The translations under genes and the position numbers were made by a program. The notes under the pieces were generated by a model. The model had not been told where the DNA came from. It saw only the letters and a list, made by a program, of their open reading frames with translations, and ran no database searches. This document shows positions 4,074 through 52,824 of a stretch of DNA of 62,563 bases, in pieces (within the stretch, counting starts at the first letter, position 1; every line of letters starts with the position of its first letter). This DNA is from Candidatus Levybacteria bacterium RIFCSPLOWO2_02_FULL_37_18. GTDB lineage: Bacteria > Patescibacteriota > Microgenomatia > Levybacterales > UBA12049. The stretch is taken from NCBI GenBank assembly GCA_001784115.1, contig MFPD01000002.1, forward strand, positions 1-62,563, read 5' to 3'.

Positions 4074-4805
4074 ATGATTACAATAATCGACTACGGTCTG
4101 GGAAACCTTACCAGCGTTAAAAATGCCTTGGATAAACTTGGAATTAATAATCAGATTTCCGCAGACTTATCTATTCTAGAAAAATCAGATGCTCTTATTT
4201 TACCAGGTGTCGGTGCAGCTAAAGCAGGAATGCAAAATTTAAAAAAGAAAAAAATCGATCAGGAAATTATTGCACATGTAAAAAAGGGGAAACCATTTCT
4301 AGGGGTATGTCTTGGTATGCAGTTGTTAATGAGTTTTTCGAAAGAAGGAAACGTAGAATGTCTTAATATAATTCCGGGAAGAGTCGTCATTCTGGGGATG
4401 ACTCAGGGCGAAGCGTGGAGGAGGACTCCAGAATCAAAAATAAGCGATTCTGGGCAGAAAACTCAGCTCTCACAAGCCCCGCTGAACGGGGCAAGCCAGA
4501 ATGTGACGGATTACGATTTTAAGGTACCACAAATTGGTTGGAACAACGTAGAAATTCAGAATTCAGAATTCAGAATTCAGAATTCTCTTTTTAAGAATAT
4601 CCCTGATAAGAGTTTTTTTTATTTTGTGCACTCATACTACTGTGAACCGGAGGATAAATCTGTAATTGCAGGAATAACAGAATATGGTATTGAGTTTTGT
4701 TCTGTATTGCAAAAAGAGAATGTTTGGGGAGCGCAATTCCATCCTGAAAAAAGCTCTGATGCCGGCTTACAGATGTTAAAGAACTTCTCAAAAATATGTA
4801 CTTAA
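4074..4805 (+). CDS. hisH: imidazole glycerol phosphate synthase glutaminase subunit, with two in-frame inserts
   Basis: PGVG, GVCLGMQ (catalytic Cys), YFVHSY, QFHPE. Confidence 0.95.
   Translation: MITIIDYGLGNLTSVKNALDKLGINNQISADLSILEKSDALILPGVGAAKAGMQNLKKKKIDQEIIAHVKKGKPFLGVCLGMQLLMSFSKEGNVECLNIIPGRVVILGMTQGEAWRRTPESKISDSGQKTQLSQAPLNGASQNVTDYDFKVPQIGWNNVEIQNSEFRIQNSLFKNIPDKSFFYFVHSYYCEPEDKSVIAGITEYGIEFCSVLQKENVWGAQFHPEKSSDAGLQMLKNFSKICT
4386..4507. repeat. palindromic element inserted in frame in hisH
   Basis: GTCATTCTGG..CCAGAATC..GATTCTGG..CCAGAATGTGAC; encodes about 40 extra aa (ILGMTQGEAW...SQNVT). Confidence 0.85.
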
Positions 4806-21556: not shown

Positions 21557-22828
21557 TTACGAACCGATTTTGAATTCAATCACGTCGCCGTCTTTGACAA
21601 TATAATCCCGTCCTTCAAGCCTTGCTCTCCCCGCTTCCCGCGAACCTTTCCAGCCTTTATTCTGAACAAAATCATCAAAACTTACTACTTCTGCTTTGAT
21701 AAATTTTTTTTCAAAGTCTGTGTGAATAACGCCCGCTGCATCAACTGCTTTTATTCCCTTTGGAACAGTCCAGGCACGCACTTCGTATTTTCCCCCTTGC
21801 CTCGCCGAAGCATCAGCGGAGGCGGGTGCTGTGAGAAATGAAATTAATCCTAATGTCTCGTATGCTTTCTTTATCAACCGCTCCAGTCCGGACTCTTCAA
21901 GACCCAAGTCTCCAAGGTATTCTTTTTGTTCATCTTCCGACAACACAGCAAGTTCCGATTCAATCTTGGCACAGATCACCACCATATTGTCATTCCCGCC
22001 CCGTGTCGTAGCACGGGGGGTAAACCTTGGCATCGTGAAAACGGGGCTCCAACGGGAGTCCATGGATCCCCGATCGGGGTCGGGGATGACAGAAAAAAGG
22101 AGTTGATTATATTCTTCAATTACTTTGGGGATATTTTCTTGTGTATATTGGTCTTCTGCAACATTAAGTACAATAATTTCAGGTTTTGAGGAAAGTAAAA
22201 AAAGATCCTTGACAACCTCCTGTTCTCCATCAATTAACCCAACATCTCTTGCAGGAATTCCCTTATTAAGTAATTCCTCAATTTTATCCAGTATATTTTG
22301 ACTTTTAACTTGAACTTTTGCCTTTTGCCTTTTGCCTTTTGCCTTTTCTAAAGTTTCTAAATCCGCAAGTATTAGTTCTGTTTGAATAACTTTATAGTCA
22401 GACATCGGATCAACCGAACCTTCTTTGATTACATTCGCATCTTCAAAAACTCGAACCACATGAGCAATAATGGAAACTTCCCGGATGTGGGACAAAAACT
22501 TATTACCAAGACCAGAACCTTCACTTGCTCCTTTTACCAATCCCGCAATATCTACAAATTCAACCGTTGCCGGTTTAATCGGCGGCCTCTTTCCAAACAA
22601 CACCTCGGGGGTGGCGCTTGACGACTCCCCCGAGGTTGAGGAACCACTTGCAACAATATCCGCCAAAGCTTCAAGTCTCTCATCCGGCACCGGAATTATT
22701 CCAACATTCGGTTCTATTGTTGCAAATGGGTAATTCGCAGCCAGCGCCTGCTGCTTTTTTAAGAGTGCATTGAACAAGGTACTCTTCCCCACATTTGGTA
22801 AACCAACAATCCCTATTGATAAATTCAT
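21557..22828 (-). CDS. ychF: ribosome-binding ATPase YchF with four in-frame inserts
   Basis: GLPNVGKST, NYPFATIEPN, DIAGLV, GVIHTDFEK, TGS domain. Confidence 0.95.
   Translation of the reverse strand: MNLSIGIVGLPNVGKSTLFNALLKKQQALAANYPFATIEPNVGIIPVPDERLEALADIVASGSSTSGESSSATPEVLFGKRPPIKPATVEFVDIAGLVKGASEGSGLGNKFLSHIREVSIIAHVVRVFEDANVIKEGSVDPMSDYKVIQTELILADLETLEKAKGKRQKAKVQVKSQNILDKIEELLNKGIPARDVGLIDGEQEVVKDLFLLSSKPEIIVLNVAEDQYTQENIPKVIEEYNQLLFSVIPDPDRGSMDSRWSPVFTMPRFTPRATTRGGNDNMVVICAKIESELAVLSEDEQKEYLGDLGLEESGLERLIKKAYETLGLISFLTAPASADASARQGGKYEVRAWTVPKGIKAVDAAGVIHTDFEKKFIKAEVVSFDDFVQNKGWKGSREAGRARLEGRDYIVKDGDVIEFKIGS
21989..22090. repeat. 102-nt palindromic element in frame in ychF
   Basis: GTCATTCCCG..CGGGAGTCC..GGATCCCCG..CGGGGATGAC. 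Confidence 0.85.
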
Positions 22829-26931: not shown

Positions 26932-26962
26932 AACTACCTGCAATTATACCATATAGGCTTTT

Positions 26963-27002
26963 GTTTCCACCCTTGGGGTGGAAACAAAGCTCCACCTGCG
27001 GA
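26963..27002. repeat. CACC-n-GGTG palindromic repeat
   Basis: GTTTCCACCCTTGGGGTGGAAAC..GCTCCACCTGCGGA; near-copies at 51213 and 52735. Confidence 0.8.
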
Positions 27003-27004
27003 AT

Positions 27005-28555
27005 TTAGCGATTTATAAGCAGGACGCGGTTTTTTTTGAATCCGTAAACCTGTTCTACCTGAGAAAAAAAAGAACTGCACAGAGCTCTAAATTCTTCGAA
27101 TTCCTCTGGTTTTTTTTCTTGATATTGACTGTTGTATAAGATTATGCCGTTTTTATTAAGAATCTCTCTAAGTTTTTTTAGAAAGTCCCCTTGGCGAGAT
27201 GACGGTGGATTCAAGGCACCTATGAAAAGATCAACTATAATTAAATCATACTTTCTATTAGCTGGTTTTTTATTCACCCACAAAACCGCATCCGAAATCA
27301 CCACTTTTGATGCTAATTTTGGATCAAGATTAAAGTGTTCTTTGGCAATTTGTACCATTATAGGATCTATCTCAACCGCTGTAATCTTTACATCAGGGAA
27401 GTATTTTTTTAAAAATTCAATAACCGTCCCCCCACCAACTCCAAGTATTAAACAATTTTTAACTTTTAATTTTGAACTTTTAACTTGGCTTATAAGCCTT
27501 CTCCACATCCACACAAACTCTCCTCCGCTTTGAGGGCCTCCTGAAAAAACCGTTTTTGATCCATACGATTTATCTATTAAAATGTGTCCATTTATATTGG
27601 AATGGAATACAGCTTTGGGCTTTTTGGCAAAAAGAGTACTAAATGTATACATTAATTTAAATATAGGGCTGTAAAATTTAATATATGCCGGCGGATATTC
27701 AAGATATTCTCCATGAAACCTGGTTTTAAATTCGGTATAGTTTTTCCATCGCTTATTAACATTTGGATACCGAGGATCATAGACGGATTCGAAATCAAAC
27801 ACTTTCATGCCCAATTTTTTGCCAAGCAAAATCCCCTCCCAAACCAATAAATAATTTGCCAGTAAATCATATCCTCTATTATTAATTCCTGTTTGGAAAT
27901 ACGATATAACAGGCTTATAAAAGCCATACCATACTACAGCGACCGGCTTTTTATCTTTAGGATCCAACCCAAACAATAAAAAAGAGTTATCTTTAAAAGA
28001 AACCCATTTTTTATGAAATTCATCATACGAGGGTACATAAAACTTTTTCATTTTTGAAAGATTTTTAAGAAGTTTATAAAACATTCGAAACTCACTGTCA
28101 TCCTTTTCATCTTTAAAAAATACCGGCTTAACAATTACTCCCATCTCTTTTGCTTTTTTAATATTTCGTCTGGCATTTTCGGAAAATGACTTAAAAATTT
28201 CTGTCTCAAAAGAAGCGATATTTATTCTTCTTGTCGCTGTATGGGCAAATCGAAAAAATGACTCTTGATATCCATTTTTTAGATAGTCTTGCTTGTTGAA
28301 TTTGTAAGCATGAGGTTCAATAACAATATATACACAGTTGTATTTTTTAGCTATTTTGTCGATTTTGGCAAACGGCATTGGGCCGACAGCATGCTGGATT
28401 TTAATAACAGAGTGATTTAATAATGGAACTCTCCTAATATAAATCTGTCTGCCGTCTATGACTTCCACATCCCATCCAAGTTTTTTAAGAAATTCGCCCC
28501 ACTGAAGAAATTGCCTGCCGTCCAATGCGGAAAGTAATACGTTATTTTTAGCCAT
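27005..28555 (-). CDS. FemABX/GNAT peptidyltransferase fused to a spermidine-synthase-like SAM methyltransferase
   Basis: FLQWGEF, FSENARRNIKKA, LLVWEGI..FDF (Fem); CLILGVGGG, VEIDP, YDLIIVD (MTase). Confidence 0.75.
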   Translation of the reverse strand: MAKNNVLLSALDGRQFLQWGEFLKKLGWDVEVIDGRQIYIRRVPLLNHSVIKIQHAVGPMPFAKIDKIAKKYNCVYIVIEPHAYKFNKQDYLKNGYQESFFRFAHTATRRINIASFETEIFKSFSENARRNIKKAKEMGVIVKPVFFKDEKDDSEFRMFYKLLKNLSKMKKFYVPSYDEFHKKWVSFKDNSFLLFGLDPKDKKPVAVVWYGFYKPVISYFQTGINNRGYDLLANYLLVWEGILLGKKLGMKVFDFESVYDPRYPNVNKRWKNYTEFKTRFHGEYLEYPPAYIKFYSPIFKLMYTFSTLFAKKPKAVFHSNINGHILIDKSYGSKTVFSGGPQSGGEFVWMWRRLISQVKSSKLKVKNCLILGVGGGTVIEFLKKYFPDVKITAVEIDPIMVQIAKEHFNLDPKLASKVVISDAVLWVNKKPANRKYDLIIVDLFIGALNPPSSRQGDFLKKLREILNKNGIILYNSQYQEKKPEEFEEFRALCSSFFSQVEQVYGFKKNRVLLINR

Positions 28556-33563: not shown

Positions 33564-34172
33564 TTAATACTCGCTTCTTCCCTCCATTGCCCTTTGCAGA
33601 GTAACGTCATCTGCGTATTCAATATCCGCCCCAACCGGCAAACCCCGCCCAATACGCGTAATTCGTAATTCGTAATTCGTAATTCGTAATTGTTTTACTA
33701 TAAACATTGCTGTAGCTTCTCCCTCCATGGTCGGATTCGTCGCGAGTATCACTTCTATAAACTGTGAACCATTAACTGTGAACCTATCAAGCAATTGCTT
33801 TATATAAATTTCGTCGGGGCCAATATTATTTAAAGGATCAATTCTGCCATGAAGCACATGATACAATCCTTTGTAGGTTTTGCCTTTTTCCAAAGCCAAA
33901 ACATCTAAGGGCTGTTCTACAACACACATTATCGACGTATCCCGATTAGAATCGCTGCAAATACTACATGGGTCTGTTTCGCCGATCATATAGCAATTAC
34001 TGCAAATTACTGTCCCTTTTTTTAAATTTTCAACCGCAGCCGAAAACGTATCTAATTCGTGTTGTGGAACGTGTAATAAGTAAAACGTCAAACGCTGGGC
34101 TGTTTTTGGCCCGATACCTGGCAGTCTCTCAAAAGATTCTATAAGTTGCTGTATTGCTTTTGGTACTTTCAT
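33564..34172 (-). CDS. recR: recombination mediator RecR (two 7-mer inserts)
   Basis: LPGIGPKTAQRL, C4 zinc finger, EVILATNPTMEGEATA. Confidence 0.97.
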   Translation of the reverse strand: MKVPKAIQQLIESFERLPGIGPKTAQRLTFYLLHVPQHELDTFSAAVENLKKGTVICSNCYMIGETDPCSICSDSNRDTSIMCVVEQPLDVLALEKGKTYKGLYHVLHGRIDPLNNIGPDEIYIKQLLDRFTVNGSQFIEVILATNPTMEGEATAMFIVKQLRITNYELRITRIGRGLPVGADIEYADDVTLQRAMEGRSEY

Positions 34173-40429: not shown

Positions 40430-42176
40430 AAGAAAGTCTTTGAAGGACTTGTAAGGGAGTTAATAATTCAGATTCACTCTTTGTACGTTCTTTCCATTCT
40501 ATTTTTTCTTCTGTTTTTGAACTTATGACTAACCGTATTGGAATTCCAATCAAGTCAGCATCCGCAAACTTTTCTCCTGCCGACACATTCCCCCGATCAT
40601 CCCAAAGAACTTCAACTCCTTCCTCCTGCAATTTCTTATAAACTTCCTCCGCAATCTCCCTCACCTCGGAGGTGGCCCGCTTCGCCGAAGCTCCAGCGAG
40701 GCGAGCCGAATGGACTCCTCCGAGGTGGATTAGATGAACCTGAAAAGGCGCCACCGCTTCCGGCCACACAATTCCTTTATCATCATGGTAAACTTCTACA
40801 ATTGTGGCCATAGTTCTTGCTAAACCAATTCCATAACATCCCATGTAGTAAGGCTTGGCTTTGCCTTTTTCATCCACAAAATTCGCATCATGCATTTTGG
40901 CAGAATAATGAAATCCCAGTTGGAAAATATTACCCACTTCAATTCCTTTTTTAGCAAAAAAAGGCTTTCCCTCTAACGAAAGATATCCTTCTTTAGCAAG
41001 AGCAATATCTCCTTCCAAATCTGAGGCATAATCCCGGTCAATATTCATATTAAGACGATCCTTGTGCTTTTTATTGGCTCCGCCATAGGCATTTTTAATG
41101 GTACGAAGAGACGTATCTGCCACTACCACCAGTTTGACGTCTTTTTCGATAATTTCTTTAATACCGACCGGAGAAATAAAACCAGGTTCGCTGTTGATTT
41201 TTTGGCGAATTTCTTCGTCTGTCCCGTGACGTAGTTGATAAGCTTTTACCAAATGCATTAGCTTAATTTCGTTTACCTCATAATCGCCCCTGATAATAGC
41301 CAAGATAAATCGTCCTTTTTCATCTACAAATAACACATCTTTAATCTGCTGCCATAACGGCAACCCATGAAGCTTAACTCCGTCTTCCATGGTAGTTCCC
41401 CGAACGGCCTCTACTTCCTGCACTGGTTTTTCTGCTTCACCCACATTTTTTTGGTCTCTTTGAAATTTAGCTACTTCTTCGTGCGCGGCATATGAACCAT
41501 CTTTTGTGGTGAAGAACTTGGACTCTCCTGCTTCGGACTCTACCACAAACTCATGACAATATTCTCCTCCAATATAGCCATTATCTGATTCAACAACGAT
41601 CGTTTTGAGTCCTAATCGATCAAAGATCCTGGTGTATATCTCCCACATACTCTGGTATTCCTTTTTAAATTCTTCCTCTGTTGCGTGAAAGGAATACGCG
41701 TCTTTCATGACAAATTCCCGAAGCCTTAAAAGTCCTCCGCGAGTTCGCATTTCGTCTCGAAACTTTGATGAGAATTGATAAAGATTAAACGGCAAGTCTT
41801 TATAACTTATCTGGAATTTGCGAACCAAATCAACCAGCATTTCTTCTGCGGTACCGCCTAAAACAAATTCAAACTTATTCCTGTCTTTGATTGTCATAAG
41901 TTCAAATCCTACCGAACTTGTCCTGTTGGTTTCTTCCCACAAATATTTCGGATGCAAAATAGGAGTCACAACTTCCTGAGCACCCGCTTTATCCATTCCT
42001 TCTTTGGTGATTTTTTTGATTTTGTCGTGCACCCGAATTCCCAGAGGCAAAAGATAATACCGTCCGGCTGTACTTTCCCGAATAAACCCGGCCCGATACA
42101 ACAACGTATGAGAGACAAGTATTGCATCTTTTGGAGTATCTTTTATAGTCTTACCAAATAATTTTGAATAACGCAT
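40413..42176 (-). CDS. proS: prolyl-tRNA synthetase (bacterial type, with editing domain)
   Basis: RDEMRTRGGLLRLREFVMKDAYSF, IEVGNIFQLG, GCYGIG, FADADLIGIP. Confidence 0.96.
   Translation of the reverse strand: MRYSKLFGKTIKDTPKDAILVSHTLLYRAGFIRESTAGRYYLLPLGIRVHDKIKKITKEGMDKAGAQEVVTPILHPKYLWEETNRTSSVGFELMTIKDRNKFEFVLGGTAEEMLVDLVRKFQISYKDLPFNLYQFSSKFRDEMRTRGGLLRLREFVMKDAYSFHATEEEFKKEYQSMWEIYTRIFDRLGLKTIVVESDNGYIGGEYCHEFVVESEAGESKFFTTKDGSYAAHEEVAKFQRDQKNVGEAEKPVQEVEAVRGTTMEDGVKLHGLPLWQQIKDVLFVDEKGRFILAIIRGDYEVNEIKLMHLVKAYQLRHGTDEEIRQKINSEPGFISPVGIKEIIEKDVKLVVVADTSLRTIKNAYGGANKKHKDRLNMNIDRDYASDLEGDIALAKEGYLSLEGKPFFAKKGIEVGNIFQLGFHYSAKMHDANFVDEKGKAKPYYMGCYGIGLARTMATIVEVYHDDKGIVWPEAVAPFQVHLIHLGGVHSARLAGASAKRATSEVREIAEEVYKKLQEEGVEVLWDDRGNVSAGEKFADADLIGIPIRLVISSKTEEKIEWKERTKSESELLTPLQVLQRLSSRTED
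40662..40728. repeat. composite palindromic element in frame in proS
   Basis: CACCTCGGAGGTG-[GCTTCGCCGAAGCTCCAGCGAGGCGAGC]-GACTCCTCCGAGGTG; encodes HSARLAGASAKRATSEV. Confidence 0.8.
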
Positions 42177-44665: not shown

Positions 44666-45655
44666 TTATTTTTCTTTTACCCCGTGGCCGCCGAATGCTT
44701 GGCGAAGATCTGCAACAAGTTTGGCAGCAAAGGAATTTTGAACTTCTGGATTAGTCTGTGATTGTCTTCTAAATTCAAGTGAGCCTTTTATTATAGGAAC
44801 AGGGACTCTTTCGTTTTCCGCTTCTTCTACAGTCCATTTCGCTTCTCCGGATTCTTCAATTACTCCAAGTACTTGCTCCAAACTCTTATCCTGATCAAAA
44901 ACTTCAACTGTTCTGTCCAGCATAAATCCGGATACCAATGTTCCTTTTTGATATAACCGAGCTACTTTGAGAAGGTCGAATTTGTATTCTGCTTTTTGCA
45001 GTACTCCAAATCCTTCCCCCAAACTCTGCATAAATCCATACTCAATACCATTATGTATCATTTTTACAAAATGCCCTGCGCCACCACTGCCAAAATATTC
45101 GTGCCCGCCATGTGGTTTTGCCAACGAATCTAAAATTGGCTTTATGAATTCATATCCGCACTCATCCCCACCCGCCATCAGCGGATATCCATGGTGAGCG
45201 GCTATCACACCGCCGCTCACTCCAATTCCCAAAAACCGAATACCTTTATTTTTAAACTGTTTAAATCGCTCTTCTGTATCCCGAAAGTGCGCATTTCCGC
45301 CATCTATTGCAATATCATCTTTCGAACAAAGAGTAAGAAGTTCATCCAAAACCGCTCTCGTTGCTTCCCCAGCCGTCACCATACACCACACTATACGTGG
45401 AGATTGTAATTGCCGAACAAGCTCTTCTATCGTTCCTGCAATTATTAGTTTTTCTGAGAAAGTATTTAGTATTTTGTATTTAGTATTTTGTATTTGCTTT
45501 GAATTTCTATATTCGGATTTCGGATTTAATTGAGATATGAGTTCTTCTACTGGCTGAGGTGATCTATTCCACACAACAACTTCATGTCCTTCTTTGAGGA
45601 GCTTAAAAACCATTCTCGAACCCATCTTGCCAAGTCCAATAAATCCAATTTTCAT
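44666..45655 (-). CDS. gnd: 6-phosphogluconate dehydrogenase (decarboxylating, short type) with 7-mer insert
   Basis: GLGKMG, IDGGN, GVSGG, GHFVKMIHNGIEYG. Confidence 0.95.
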   Translation of the reverse strand: MKIGFIGLGKMGSRMVFKLLKEGHEVVVWNRSPQPVEELISQLNPKSEYRNSKQIQNTKYKILNTFSEKLIIAGTIEELVRQLQSPRIVWCMVTAGEATRAVLDELLTLCSKDDIAIDGGNAHFRDTEERFKQFKNKGIRFLGIGVSGGVIAAHHGYPLMAGGDECGYEFIKPILDSLAKPHGGHEYFGSGGAGHFVKMIHNGIEYGFMQSLGEGFGVLQKAEYKFDLLKVARLYQKGTLVSGFMLDRTVEVFDQDKSLEQVLGVIEESGEAKWTVEEAENERVPVPIIKGSLEFRRQSQTNPEVQNSFAAKLVADLRQAFGGHGVKEK

Positions 45656-51186: not shown

Positions 51187-51212
51187 ATTTCTCCAAGTTC
51201 TAATCTTGTATG

Positions 51213-51249
51213 TACACCCTTGGGGTGGAAACGAGACTCCACCCGCGGA
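51213..51249. repeat. CACC-n-GGTG repeat (35/37 identical to 52735-52771)
   Basis: TACACCCTTGGGGTGGAAACGAGACTCCACCCGCGGA. Confidence 0.85.
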
Positions 51250-51267
51250 TTTTTTAAGATTCAATCT

Positions 51268-52682: not shown

Positions 52683-52734
52683 TAAGATAGATACATCTTA
52701 TCAAAGTTTAAACAAGAATACAAGTGATTCGATT

Positions 52735-52771
52735 TACACCCTTGGGGTGGAAATGAGGCTCCACCCGCGGA
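52735..52771. repeat. CACC-n-GGTG repeat
   Basis: TACACCCTTGGGGTGGAAATGAGGCTCCACCCGCGGA. Confidence 0.85.
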
Positions 52772-52824
52772 AAACACCTCTTTCTTGCTTTTTAGAAGCA
52801 TTTGGCATACAATGGCTTTCTTGT

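Follow-up and report, generated by a model that had tools for sequence, protein, structure and literature searches.

The question posed by this locus is whether a core gene can take up repeat DNA of several kinds and still serve the cell. The gene is ychF, on a stretch of 62,563 nucleotides (nt; hereafter the window) from contig MFPD01000002.1 of Candidatus Levybacteria bacterium RIFCSPLOWO2_02_FULL_37_18, a tiny-genome groundwater bacterium of the Candidate Phyla Radiation (CPR) whose assembly comprises 1.11 Mb in 31 contigs at 36.8% G+C. Its product is a universally conserved, translation-associated ATPase, and the gene therefore provides a strict test of how a core protein absorbs foreign DNA. 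An initial annotation, made from the sequence alone, had proposed that ychF carries four different in-frame repeat inserts, numbered here (i) to (iv) along the forward strand, and that they reflect strong insertion pressure filtered for reading frame and loop position. Our analysis indicates that this ychF is probably the cell's single, working copy, with repeat DNA of four classes within its reading frame. Three of the four are net insertions of G+C-rich palindromic DNA that, to judge from their frame, their lack of stop codons and the integrity of the gene around them, appear to be translated as floppy surface loops.

Integrity of ychF and the position of its extra residues

The open reading frame (ORF) scored 379 bits against the TIGR00092 YchF equivalog model (cut-off 279) and also matched PF01926 and PF06071, and its best named protein matches came from Candidatus Levybacteria and Microgenomates. 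The protein contains G1 (GLPNVGKST), G3 (DIAG) and G4 (NVAE) motifs, the last being of the YchF type, defined as (N/T)(M/L/V)xE (PMC11814078). The equivalog score, the three-domain fold (ATPase, helical, TGS) and the G motifs place it in the YchF/OLA1 subfamily of Obg-type P-loop NTPases. At every alignment column that is invariant across 120 orthologs, the shared residue is kept. The initial estimate of 423 aa against about 365 for a typical YchF, with intact G motifs, held up: relatives measure 365-370 aa. It had also been suggested that the inserts might merely mark decay if a second intact ychF existed; when the protein was compared by tblastn with the whole assembly (96.5% complete), this locus alone was returned, and the gene showed no sign of decay.

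An index of public assemblies lists the exact 423-aa product in 30 blocks, from which 24 contigs (NCBI, ENA, JGI) were read. Assemblies from aquifer samples that contain this genome include GCA_001782205, GCA_001782445 and GCA_001782685. Six fetched loci differed from the window by 0-3 single-nucleotide polymorphisms (SNPs) per 7.3 kb, with zero SNPs within the inserts and a sole intragenic SNP that is silent. Because the same product recurs in independent assemblies and the inserts are free of SNPs, the insert structure is real and fixed in a near-clonal population.

A HMMER alignment to the YchF proteins of H. influenzae and E. coli resolved three blocks and left query residues 60-82, ~231-281 and 335-345 unmatched; when relatives were considered together with these two proteins, the extra segments were aa 60-82, ~246-281 and 335-345. 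The uninserted state was defined from 28 orthologs in genomes of the same order. The baseline is EITKEEEKMSxL (12 aa) at site 1, about six residues (for example LGV-SSE-S) ahead of VVICAKIE at site 2, and FLTA-GEKEV at site 3. Relative to this state the window protein has gained 13 aa at (iv), 31 aa at (ii), 11 aa at (i) and 1 residue at (iii), giving 423 aa versus 366-370 aa. All four repeat pieces are in frame and stop-free, with 4-6 of their six frames open, and sequence inspection, folding and Tandem Repeats Finder located them at or within a few bases of the places first reported (Table 1), element (ii) being 103 nt long rather than 102. What stands of the four proposed inserts is thus four repeat classes in an intact single-copy gene; "insert" is the wrong word for (iii), which adds almost no length.

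An AlphaFold2 model built with the 120-sequence alignment reached a predicted local distance difference test score (pLDDT) of 83 and a predicted template modelling (TM) score of 0.84. Its best Foldseek matches were the YchF structures 8kie, 2dwq and 1jal, with a target-normalised TM score of ~0.8. Local pLDDT was ~56 at residues 61-80 (iv), <50 at 253-277 (ii), ~75 at 341-350 (i) and ~75 at 161-180 (the tip that contains iii). The YchF fold is thus predicted to be preserved, with the three net inserts modelled as low-confidence surface segments, and the ortholog alignment and structure mapping proposed at the outset as a check agree on these three segments.

Two of the three sites vary widely among orthologs. 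Site 1 exceeds its baseline in 82 of 120 orthologs and site 2 in ~59 of 120, in each case by inserts that bring the segment to as many as 49 aa. The inserted sequences are many and unrelated, and include families with the signatures ...QVQHD..., ...IASS..PRND..., ...SGQA..., TSEE...PSEV and HLGG. Both loops are permissive hot spots that have been struck repeatedly across the order. Hot spot 1 of the ortholog P0002 is occupied by a (iv)-type hairpin read in another frame (GHLGGAHSVIPEE), which shows that independent insertion occurs there. Further inserts, at other sites, were seen in the orthologs L015 (the ychF of genome G034), L021 and P0055, namely a triple tandem repeat of the 11-aa unit GGPASPDSASL in the C-terminal domain and a PSxxSGQA insert that follows VRAFxD.

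As a separate observation, nucleotide identity between the window gene and L008 (the ychF of genome G026) is 0.72-0.86 over the first ~150 codons and drops to 0.36-0.6 in mid-gene, a fall that suggests a mosaic (recombinant) history for the ychF alleles of Levybacteria lineages.

Table 1. Positions of ychF, its repeat elements and related features (window coordinates unless a contig is named)
Feature	Position	Strand	Description
ychF coding sequence	21557..22828	-	423 aa; ATPase/G domain, inserted helical domain, C-terminal TGS-like domain
Element (i)	21794..21826	-	33-nt hairpin CCCGCCTCCGCTGATGCTTCGGCGAGGCAAGGG, 73% G+C; read PASADASARQG; beta-turn of C-terminal domain, FLTA/GEKEV in relatives
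Element (ii)	21989..22091	.	103 nt, 63% G+C; probable head-to-head pair of TGTC-tagged REP hairpins, TGTCAT...ATGACA; aa 246-280
Unit A of (ii)	22066..22091	-	Tag TGTC, stem ATCCCCGA/TCGGGGAT, loop CCCCGA, tail CCA; found by unit scan
Unit B of (ii)	21989..22065	+	Tag TGTC, 5' arm ATTCCCGC, ~51-nt loop, degenerate 3' arm ACGGGAGT, tail CCA
Element (iii)	22296..22351	-	Heptamer-periodic; perfect array 22315-22347 (AAAGGCA x4.7) encodes aa 161-172, EKAKGKRQKAKV
Element (iv)	22602..22636	.	35-nt hairpin ACCTCGGGGG-TGGCGCTTGACGACT-CCCCCGAGGT; perfect 10-bp stem, 15-nt loop
Hot spot 1 segment	22586..22648	-	aa 61-81, SGSSTSGESSSATPEVLFGKR; 25 aa between anchors (baseline 12 aa)
Nested hairpin in ProRS-like 596-aa ORF	40663..40726	-	(i)-type hairpin inside (iv)-type loop, in frame, ...HLIHLGGVHSARLAGASAKRATSEV... 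/ HLGGVHSARLAGASAKRATSEV
Small GIY-YIG frames	C13:36277-36483, C5:15640-15861, C13:27727-27930, C2:70760-70909		Outside the window
Predicted junction-spanning peptides of window YchF			...ATPEVLFGK, GGNDNMVVICAK, QGGKYEVR; tip peptides of AKGKR type

The four repeat classes

BLAST with the four pieces as queries recovered genomic copies of the heptamer and of the weak ends of (ii) only; the families of (iv) and (i) were recovered by hairpin scanning and motif patterns. A search of Rfam gave zero matches at E values up to 1.

Element (iv) folds at -23.8 kcal/mol (z -4.5), a value equalled by none of 200 shuffled sequences. Its family follows the pattern ACCTCSGRGG-(TGGC...GACT)-CCYCSGAGGT, of which the genome holds six perfect copies, all in frame within long ORFs: two in PurL, which also carries a degenerate third, and one each in ProRS, a UvrD-like helicase, a 2460-aa surface protein and ychF. 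Across the order, 11 of 121 genomes contain members of the family, at 1-6 copies each, and a reversed-pattern control gave zero hits. Among copies fetched from other genomes, 17 of 19 fall within housekeeping genes that form long open frames (SufS, TsaE, FolD, DNA ligase, ProRS, PurL, Tgt, transketolase and others), often at orthologous sites. Overall, 23 of 25 copies are genic, against an expected fraction of 0.68 (P 0.0045); here and below, P values are simple binomial figures and ORF context was judged from open frames, not gene calls. The two variable positions of the stem are complementary in 27 of 28 and 28 of 28 collected copies, across three stem types. Within ychF, a 36-nt core of (iv) is identical (36/36) across genomes G000, G006 and G026, where the next best 36-nt window of the gene reaches 31-33/36, and parsimony on the ortholog tree requires 9-11 changes for this element. 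Third-codon identity elsewhere in the gene is 0.25-0.6.

Element (i) forms a 13-bp hairpin (-20.1 kcal/mol, z -2.6) and corresponds to an 11-aa gap against 1JAL. The same turn of the C-terminal domain carries it in 6 of 120 orthologs, with nucleotide identities to the window of 32/33 in P0015 and 30/30 in P0002, compared with 0.65-0.69 gene-wide. Its core, YCGCTNNNGCTTCKGCGRR, is present in 20 of 121 genomes of the order (control hits, 0), and members of the same family (SFAKAS...) occur in region (iii) of other orthologs. The genome has a single second copy, within the loop of the (iv)-type hairpin of ProRS, and this nested structure folds at -45.5 kcal/mol (z -4.4). The ProRS gene of genome G008 has the same outer hairpin at the orthologous site, with an inner element that resembles the reverse complement of the one in the window.

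Element (ii) encodes the peptide SVIPDPDRGSMDSRWSPVFTMPRFTPRATTRGGND. Its layout is TGTC-ATCCCCGA-CCCCGA-TCGGGGAT-CCATGG-...-ATTCCCGC(reverse complement)-GACA: each outer end carries a TGTC tag (21989-21992 and, as the reverse complement, 22088-22091), and the two units, each ending in CCA, share the centre CCATGG in a head-to-head dimer. The CGTC-tagged repetitive extragenic palindromic (REP) sequences have a CGTC or TGTC tag, an 8-9-bp stem starting with AT, a 4-5-nt loop and a tail of about CCA, with head-to-head dimers dominant; their families CGTC-1 to CGTC-4 are spread over five phyla, in a list that does not name CPR bacteria (Di Nocera, De Gregorio and Rocco 2013, PMC3733652). Like these repeats, which include Neisseria dRS3/NTS, element (ii) combines the tag, the CCA tail and the head-to-head arrangement, and its family is multi-copy, mostly intergenic and sometimes intragenic. 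Stem and loop agree in part. Unit A is canonical, with a perfect 8-bp stem that starts with AT, save for its 6-nt loop. Unlike the CGTC-tagged REPs, unit B has a 51-nt loop containing a nested hairpin (CCCGTG-TCGTAG-CACGGG); its arms pair at 6 of 8 positions, and it shares 11 of its first 12 nt with the Neisseria NTS consensus CGTCATTCCCGC (PMC11893778). From this layout, (ii) is most readily classified as a REP hairpin pair of the Rickettsia RPE-4/6 and Neisseria NTS type with an extra hairpin nested inside.

A genome census recovered 97 simple TGTC units (74 with 5-nt loops; tails CTA, CTC or CCA) and 74 head-to-head TGTC dimers. The units are rarer in long ORFs, with 26 of 97 (27%) found there versus 68% of random sites (P 2e-16). 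We also considered whether TGTC dimers are unusually stop-free and rejected the idea, as they are no more open than random segments. At the site of (ii), the G016 ortholog carries a clean canonical 55-nt dimer with its units in the opposite order, one of them near the NTS consensus, whereas L008 and L012 carry single TGTC units with compensatory stem differences; the REP units at hot spot 2 of L005, L008 and L012 differ in type and orientation. Because the G016, L008 and L012 orthologs carry different units, this hot spot has been struck several times independently.

Codons that spell the tag (GTCAT/ATGAC) are often native at both hot spots in uninserted orthologs (L009, L016, L017, L020 and others), and could act as a target or nucleation site for insertion. 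As an account of the hot spots this found weak support: tag codons (VVI, GTC GTC ATT; MT, ATG ACN) occur at positions aligning with window aa 78 and 284, but also at aa 120-122 and 323, which have no inserts. Two opposite-strand ORFs that overlap (ii), 21831-22106 (+) and 21926-22189 (+), of 87-91 aa, were judged spurious; they exist only because the G+C-rich insert lacks stop codons, and inserts of this kind could seed false gene calls.

Element (iii) differs in kind. Tandem Repeats Finder reported a period of 7, 4.7 copies and 100% matches over 33 nt, with the unit CTTTTGC (AAAGGCA on the coding strand), and degenerate heptamers extend around the array to about 22296-22351. The region measures 29 aa in the window and 26-30 aa in the 120 orthologs, and since this length lies within the ortholog range, (iii) counts as repeat DNA that brings no net insertion. 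The region is likewise (AAAANNC)n-periodic in orthologs L009 and L015. In the model, the array forms the end of helix 141-169 and the turn ahead of helix 174-188, and the region aligns with the tip K149-K159 of E. coli YchF, window residues K169, K171 and K175 falling on K150, K152 and K159. In E. coli, K149, K152, K156 and K159 at the helical tip bind helix H62 of 23S rRNA (PMC11814078). By this alignment, (iii) replaces, without lengthening it, the Lys-rich helical tip by which YchF is held on the 50S subunit. Translated in its three frames, AAAGGCA yields K, A, K, G, K, R and Q, and because every frame gives Lys, Arg, Gln, Gly or Ala, the repeat can serve as a basic tip.

Period 7 dominates the tandem repeats of this genome (316 arrays, versus 43 of period 6). 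The arrays mostly have 4.3-5 copies and span ~31-34 nt, with many different units, and 146 of the 316 lie in ORFs of at least 120 aa. Examples in the window lie at 4553-4585, 33657-33691 and 45461-45495, with the translated motifs ISNFKFQISN, IGNWKLEIGN and IQNSEFRIQNS. Cyanobacterial short tandemly repeated repetitive (STRR) sequences are heptanucleotide tandem repeats scattered over the genome, and the arrays here resemble them in being tandem 7-nt units found genome-wide. Unlike STRR sequences, they are short and stereotyped (~4.4-5 copies), comprise many units and lie in ORFs in nearly half of cases, and the one in ychF encodes a Lys-rich tip.

Spread of the elements and candidate enzymes

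Elements of this kind are already known from other bacteria. Rickettsia palindromic elements (RPEs) are palindromes inserted in frame in Rickettsia genes (Ogata et al. 2000 Science 290:347, as cited in PMC10969869). Like RPEs as that account presents them, the window elements are short in-frame palindromes that occur, within a reduced genome, in housekeeping genes unrelated to one another, and they would likewise be translated into extra peptide where the fold can accept it. On the same account the window differs in that its host belongs to another phylum (CPR, Levybacteria-like), several families occupy one gene and most units are shorter (25-35 nt, with dimers of 55-120 nt, versus ~150 bp for RPE-1). 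RPE-1 has no apparent sequence homology to the window repeats, and the comparison is one of behaviour and of the CGTC-tagged architecture, which (ii) shares with RPE-4 and RPE-6 only (PMC3733652). A search of the available literature collection found no paper on such repeats in Patescibacteria or CPR bacteria. The kind is already known, from Rickettsia palindromic elements and CGTC-tagged REPs, and its occurrence in this bacterial group is a new example.

A second comparison concerns (iv). In REP/REPIN systems that involve a REP-associated tyrosine transposase (RAYT), the repeats have a GTAG tag, and the cognate Y1 (RAYT) gene is flanked by the same repeat. Element (iv) resembles these repeats in its two inverted arms that form a hairpin, and its arm CACCTCSGAGGTG is similar to the CACC-N5-GGTG palindromes on either side of Y1 genes in this genome. 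Unlike them, (iv) is low-copy (1-6 per genome) and almost wholly intragenic. It has no GTAG tag and its arms are absent from the Y1_Tnp loci examined, which sets it apart from RAYT-associated repeats.

The elements may have spread by single-strand or hairpin-based processes, for which GIY-YIG (Ssn-like) genes with GTCAT hairpins and Y1 transposase genes with CACC-N5-GGTG flanks would be candidate enzymes. The genome has four small GIY-YIG open frames (71-119 aa; PF01541, 34.7-51.3 bits). The frame at C13:36277 is bordered immediately on both sides by GTCAT-tagged hairpins, a layout that fits the published Ssn arrangement (PMC11893778); the other three have a one-sided hairpin or a bare tag. 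As in the Neisseria NTS-Ssn pair (PMC11893778), a GIY-YIG gene is thus flanked by repeats, although cleavage by the local enzyme is putative, and the local protein gave zero matches among solved structures or NCBIfam models. The genome also contains a third palindrome family (...CACCCTTGGGGTG...CCACCYGCGG...), with 14 core copies, among them 26958-27006, 51205-51253 and 52727-52775 in the window and others at C14:33600-34400. On contig C14, palindromes of this family flank a 243-aa Y1_Tnp (RAYT-like) gene, and the Y1 genes on contigs C7 and C15 have their own CACC-N5-GGTG-type flanks.

Whatever the enzyme, an insertion into ychF would survive only if its length were a multiple of three, it were stop-free and it fell in a permissive loop. 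Such limits on survival would explain why unrelated elements fill the same two loops in most orthologs.

Competing explanations and what the locus means

The initial picture of insertion pressure filtered for frame and loop position survives in part. In its favor, the pieces are in frame and stop-free, the net inserts lie in low-confidence surface loops, and the two hot spots are lengthened in 82 and ~59 of the 120 orthologs. It needs amending in three respects. Element (iii) does not sit in a neutral loop, since it encodes the Lys-rich tip whose E. coli counterpart contacts 23S rRNA H62. Fewer TGTC hairpin units lie inside genes than expected from random sites. Finally, (i) and (iv) are not private, recent hits: orthologs from other genera carry these hairpins at identical codon positions, which makes the pressure order-wide and partly old or site-directed.

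Several observations weigh against reading the palindromes simply as inserted DNA tolerated by the protein. Between genera, no other DNA of the gene is conserved as well as hairpins (iv) and (i), which surpass even the DNA that codes for the P-loop. Simple selfish DNA ought to decay, so that a host-level role or active homogenisation is conceivable. Families (i) and (iv) have no directly tied mobilising enzyme, no Y1 gene flanked by (iv) arms was present among the fetched Y1_Tnp loci, and no target-site duplications were seen. On a tree computed without the insert columns, the six carriers of (i) are scattered, and parsimony counts six changes; a single old gain is nevertheless possible, because an approximately unbiased test keeps one clade (p 0.355), and on this tree one gain and several are inseparable.

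The stasis of the hairpins could have various causes: the double constraint of pairing and coding, intrastrand correction, homing or gene conversion, or a function for the host. Intrastrand (quasi-palindrome) correction, or selection acting on the hairpin, would preserve stem complementarity and thereby account for the longer persistence of the hairpins relative to neighbouring synonymous sites. It is conceivable, though we hold it only as a tentative proposal, that (iv) and (i) are distinct elements adapted to intragenic life, given their low copy number, their near-confinement to coding sequence, their recurrence at orthologous codons of many housekeeping genes in different genera, their entry into the same loop in different frames, their nesting at a fixed point in one another's loops and a constancy greater than that of the P-loop codons. 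If so, they would imply site-directed insertion (homing) by a single-strand enzyme, or active maintenance of hairpins; to our knowledge, neither process has been described for bacteria with such small genomes.

Among the alternatives to a working gene that tolerates inserted repeats, the one that survives best, while still unlikely, holds that hairpins (iv), (i) and perhaps (ii) are kept for a function in the host's DNA or RNA, the peptide being a by-product; ribosome pausing between folding units, mRNA stability, or recognition by a nuclease or recombinase (as NTS is by Ssn) might be such functions. It would account for the cross-genus identity of the hairpins (36/36, 32/33 and 30/30, versus 0.25-0.6 at third codon positions), for the compensatory covariation that maintains pairing in the stem of (iv), for the excess of (iv) in ORFs and for its recurrence at orthologous sites of ProRS, DNA ligase, TsaE, FolD and PurL. 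Most orthologs have different elements, or none, in the same loops, however, which argues that ychF needs no particular hairpin; Rfam offers no matching family, and the conservation could equally stem from pairing and coding on both arms or from intrastrand correction.

That the inserts are adaptive, lineage-specific protein loops (new interaction surfaces, for example), selected as peptides, we consider quite improbable. The peptides STSGESSSATPEV and PASAxASARQG do recur in several genera, and the heptamer region on the rRNA-contacting tip stays Lys-rich. Identity at all synonymous sites, however, is beyond the reach of selection on a peptide, the same DNA families are read in unrelated proteins and in other frames (for example TSGES versus HLGGV), and the model assigns the inserts low confidence.

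Decay of the gene (a pseudogene in the making) or an assembly artefact is largely refuted and hardly credible: four foreign pieces in one gene are unusual, but the ORF is intact, its invariant residues are kept, its predicted fold is confident, it is the sole copy in the genome, and the same sequence appears in at least 24 contigs from NCBI, ENA and JGI assemblies. The only apparent variant without (iv), a 311-aa record (P0001) from the SRC source, which we take to be a protein-level assembly, was rejected as a polymorphic allele: it is 100% identical to the window protein over residues 83-324 and divergent before them, has no encoding contig and is probably a chimera. Equally far-fetched is the absence of the inserts from the protein through translational bypassing, as at the GC-rich "byp" hairpins of Magnusiomyces mitochondria, or through excision from RNA; stable G+C-rich hairpins within coding sequence would suit it, but every intragenic copy examined keeps the host frame and is stop-free, which would be needless if the hairpins were skipped.

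We therefore favor the reading of a single, working ychF that holds repeat DNA of four classes, in which one YchF has taken up ~56 extra residues from three hairpin families while a fourth repeat class encodes its ribosome-contact tip. The two permissive loops form natural maps of insertion tolerance across the order and may be useful for placing tags in YchF/OLA1. The findings bear on the origin of lineage-specific protein insertions in CPR bacteria, on gene calling and homology searches, and on the spread of palindromic repeats, and the nucleotide stasis of two of the hairpins points to a process not yet understood. In bacteria where intergenic space is nearly absent, genes appear to be a main habitat for repeat DNA.

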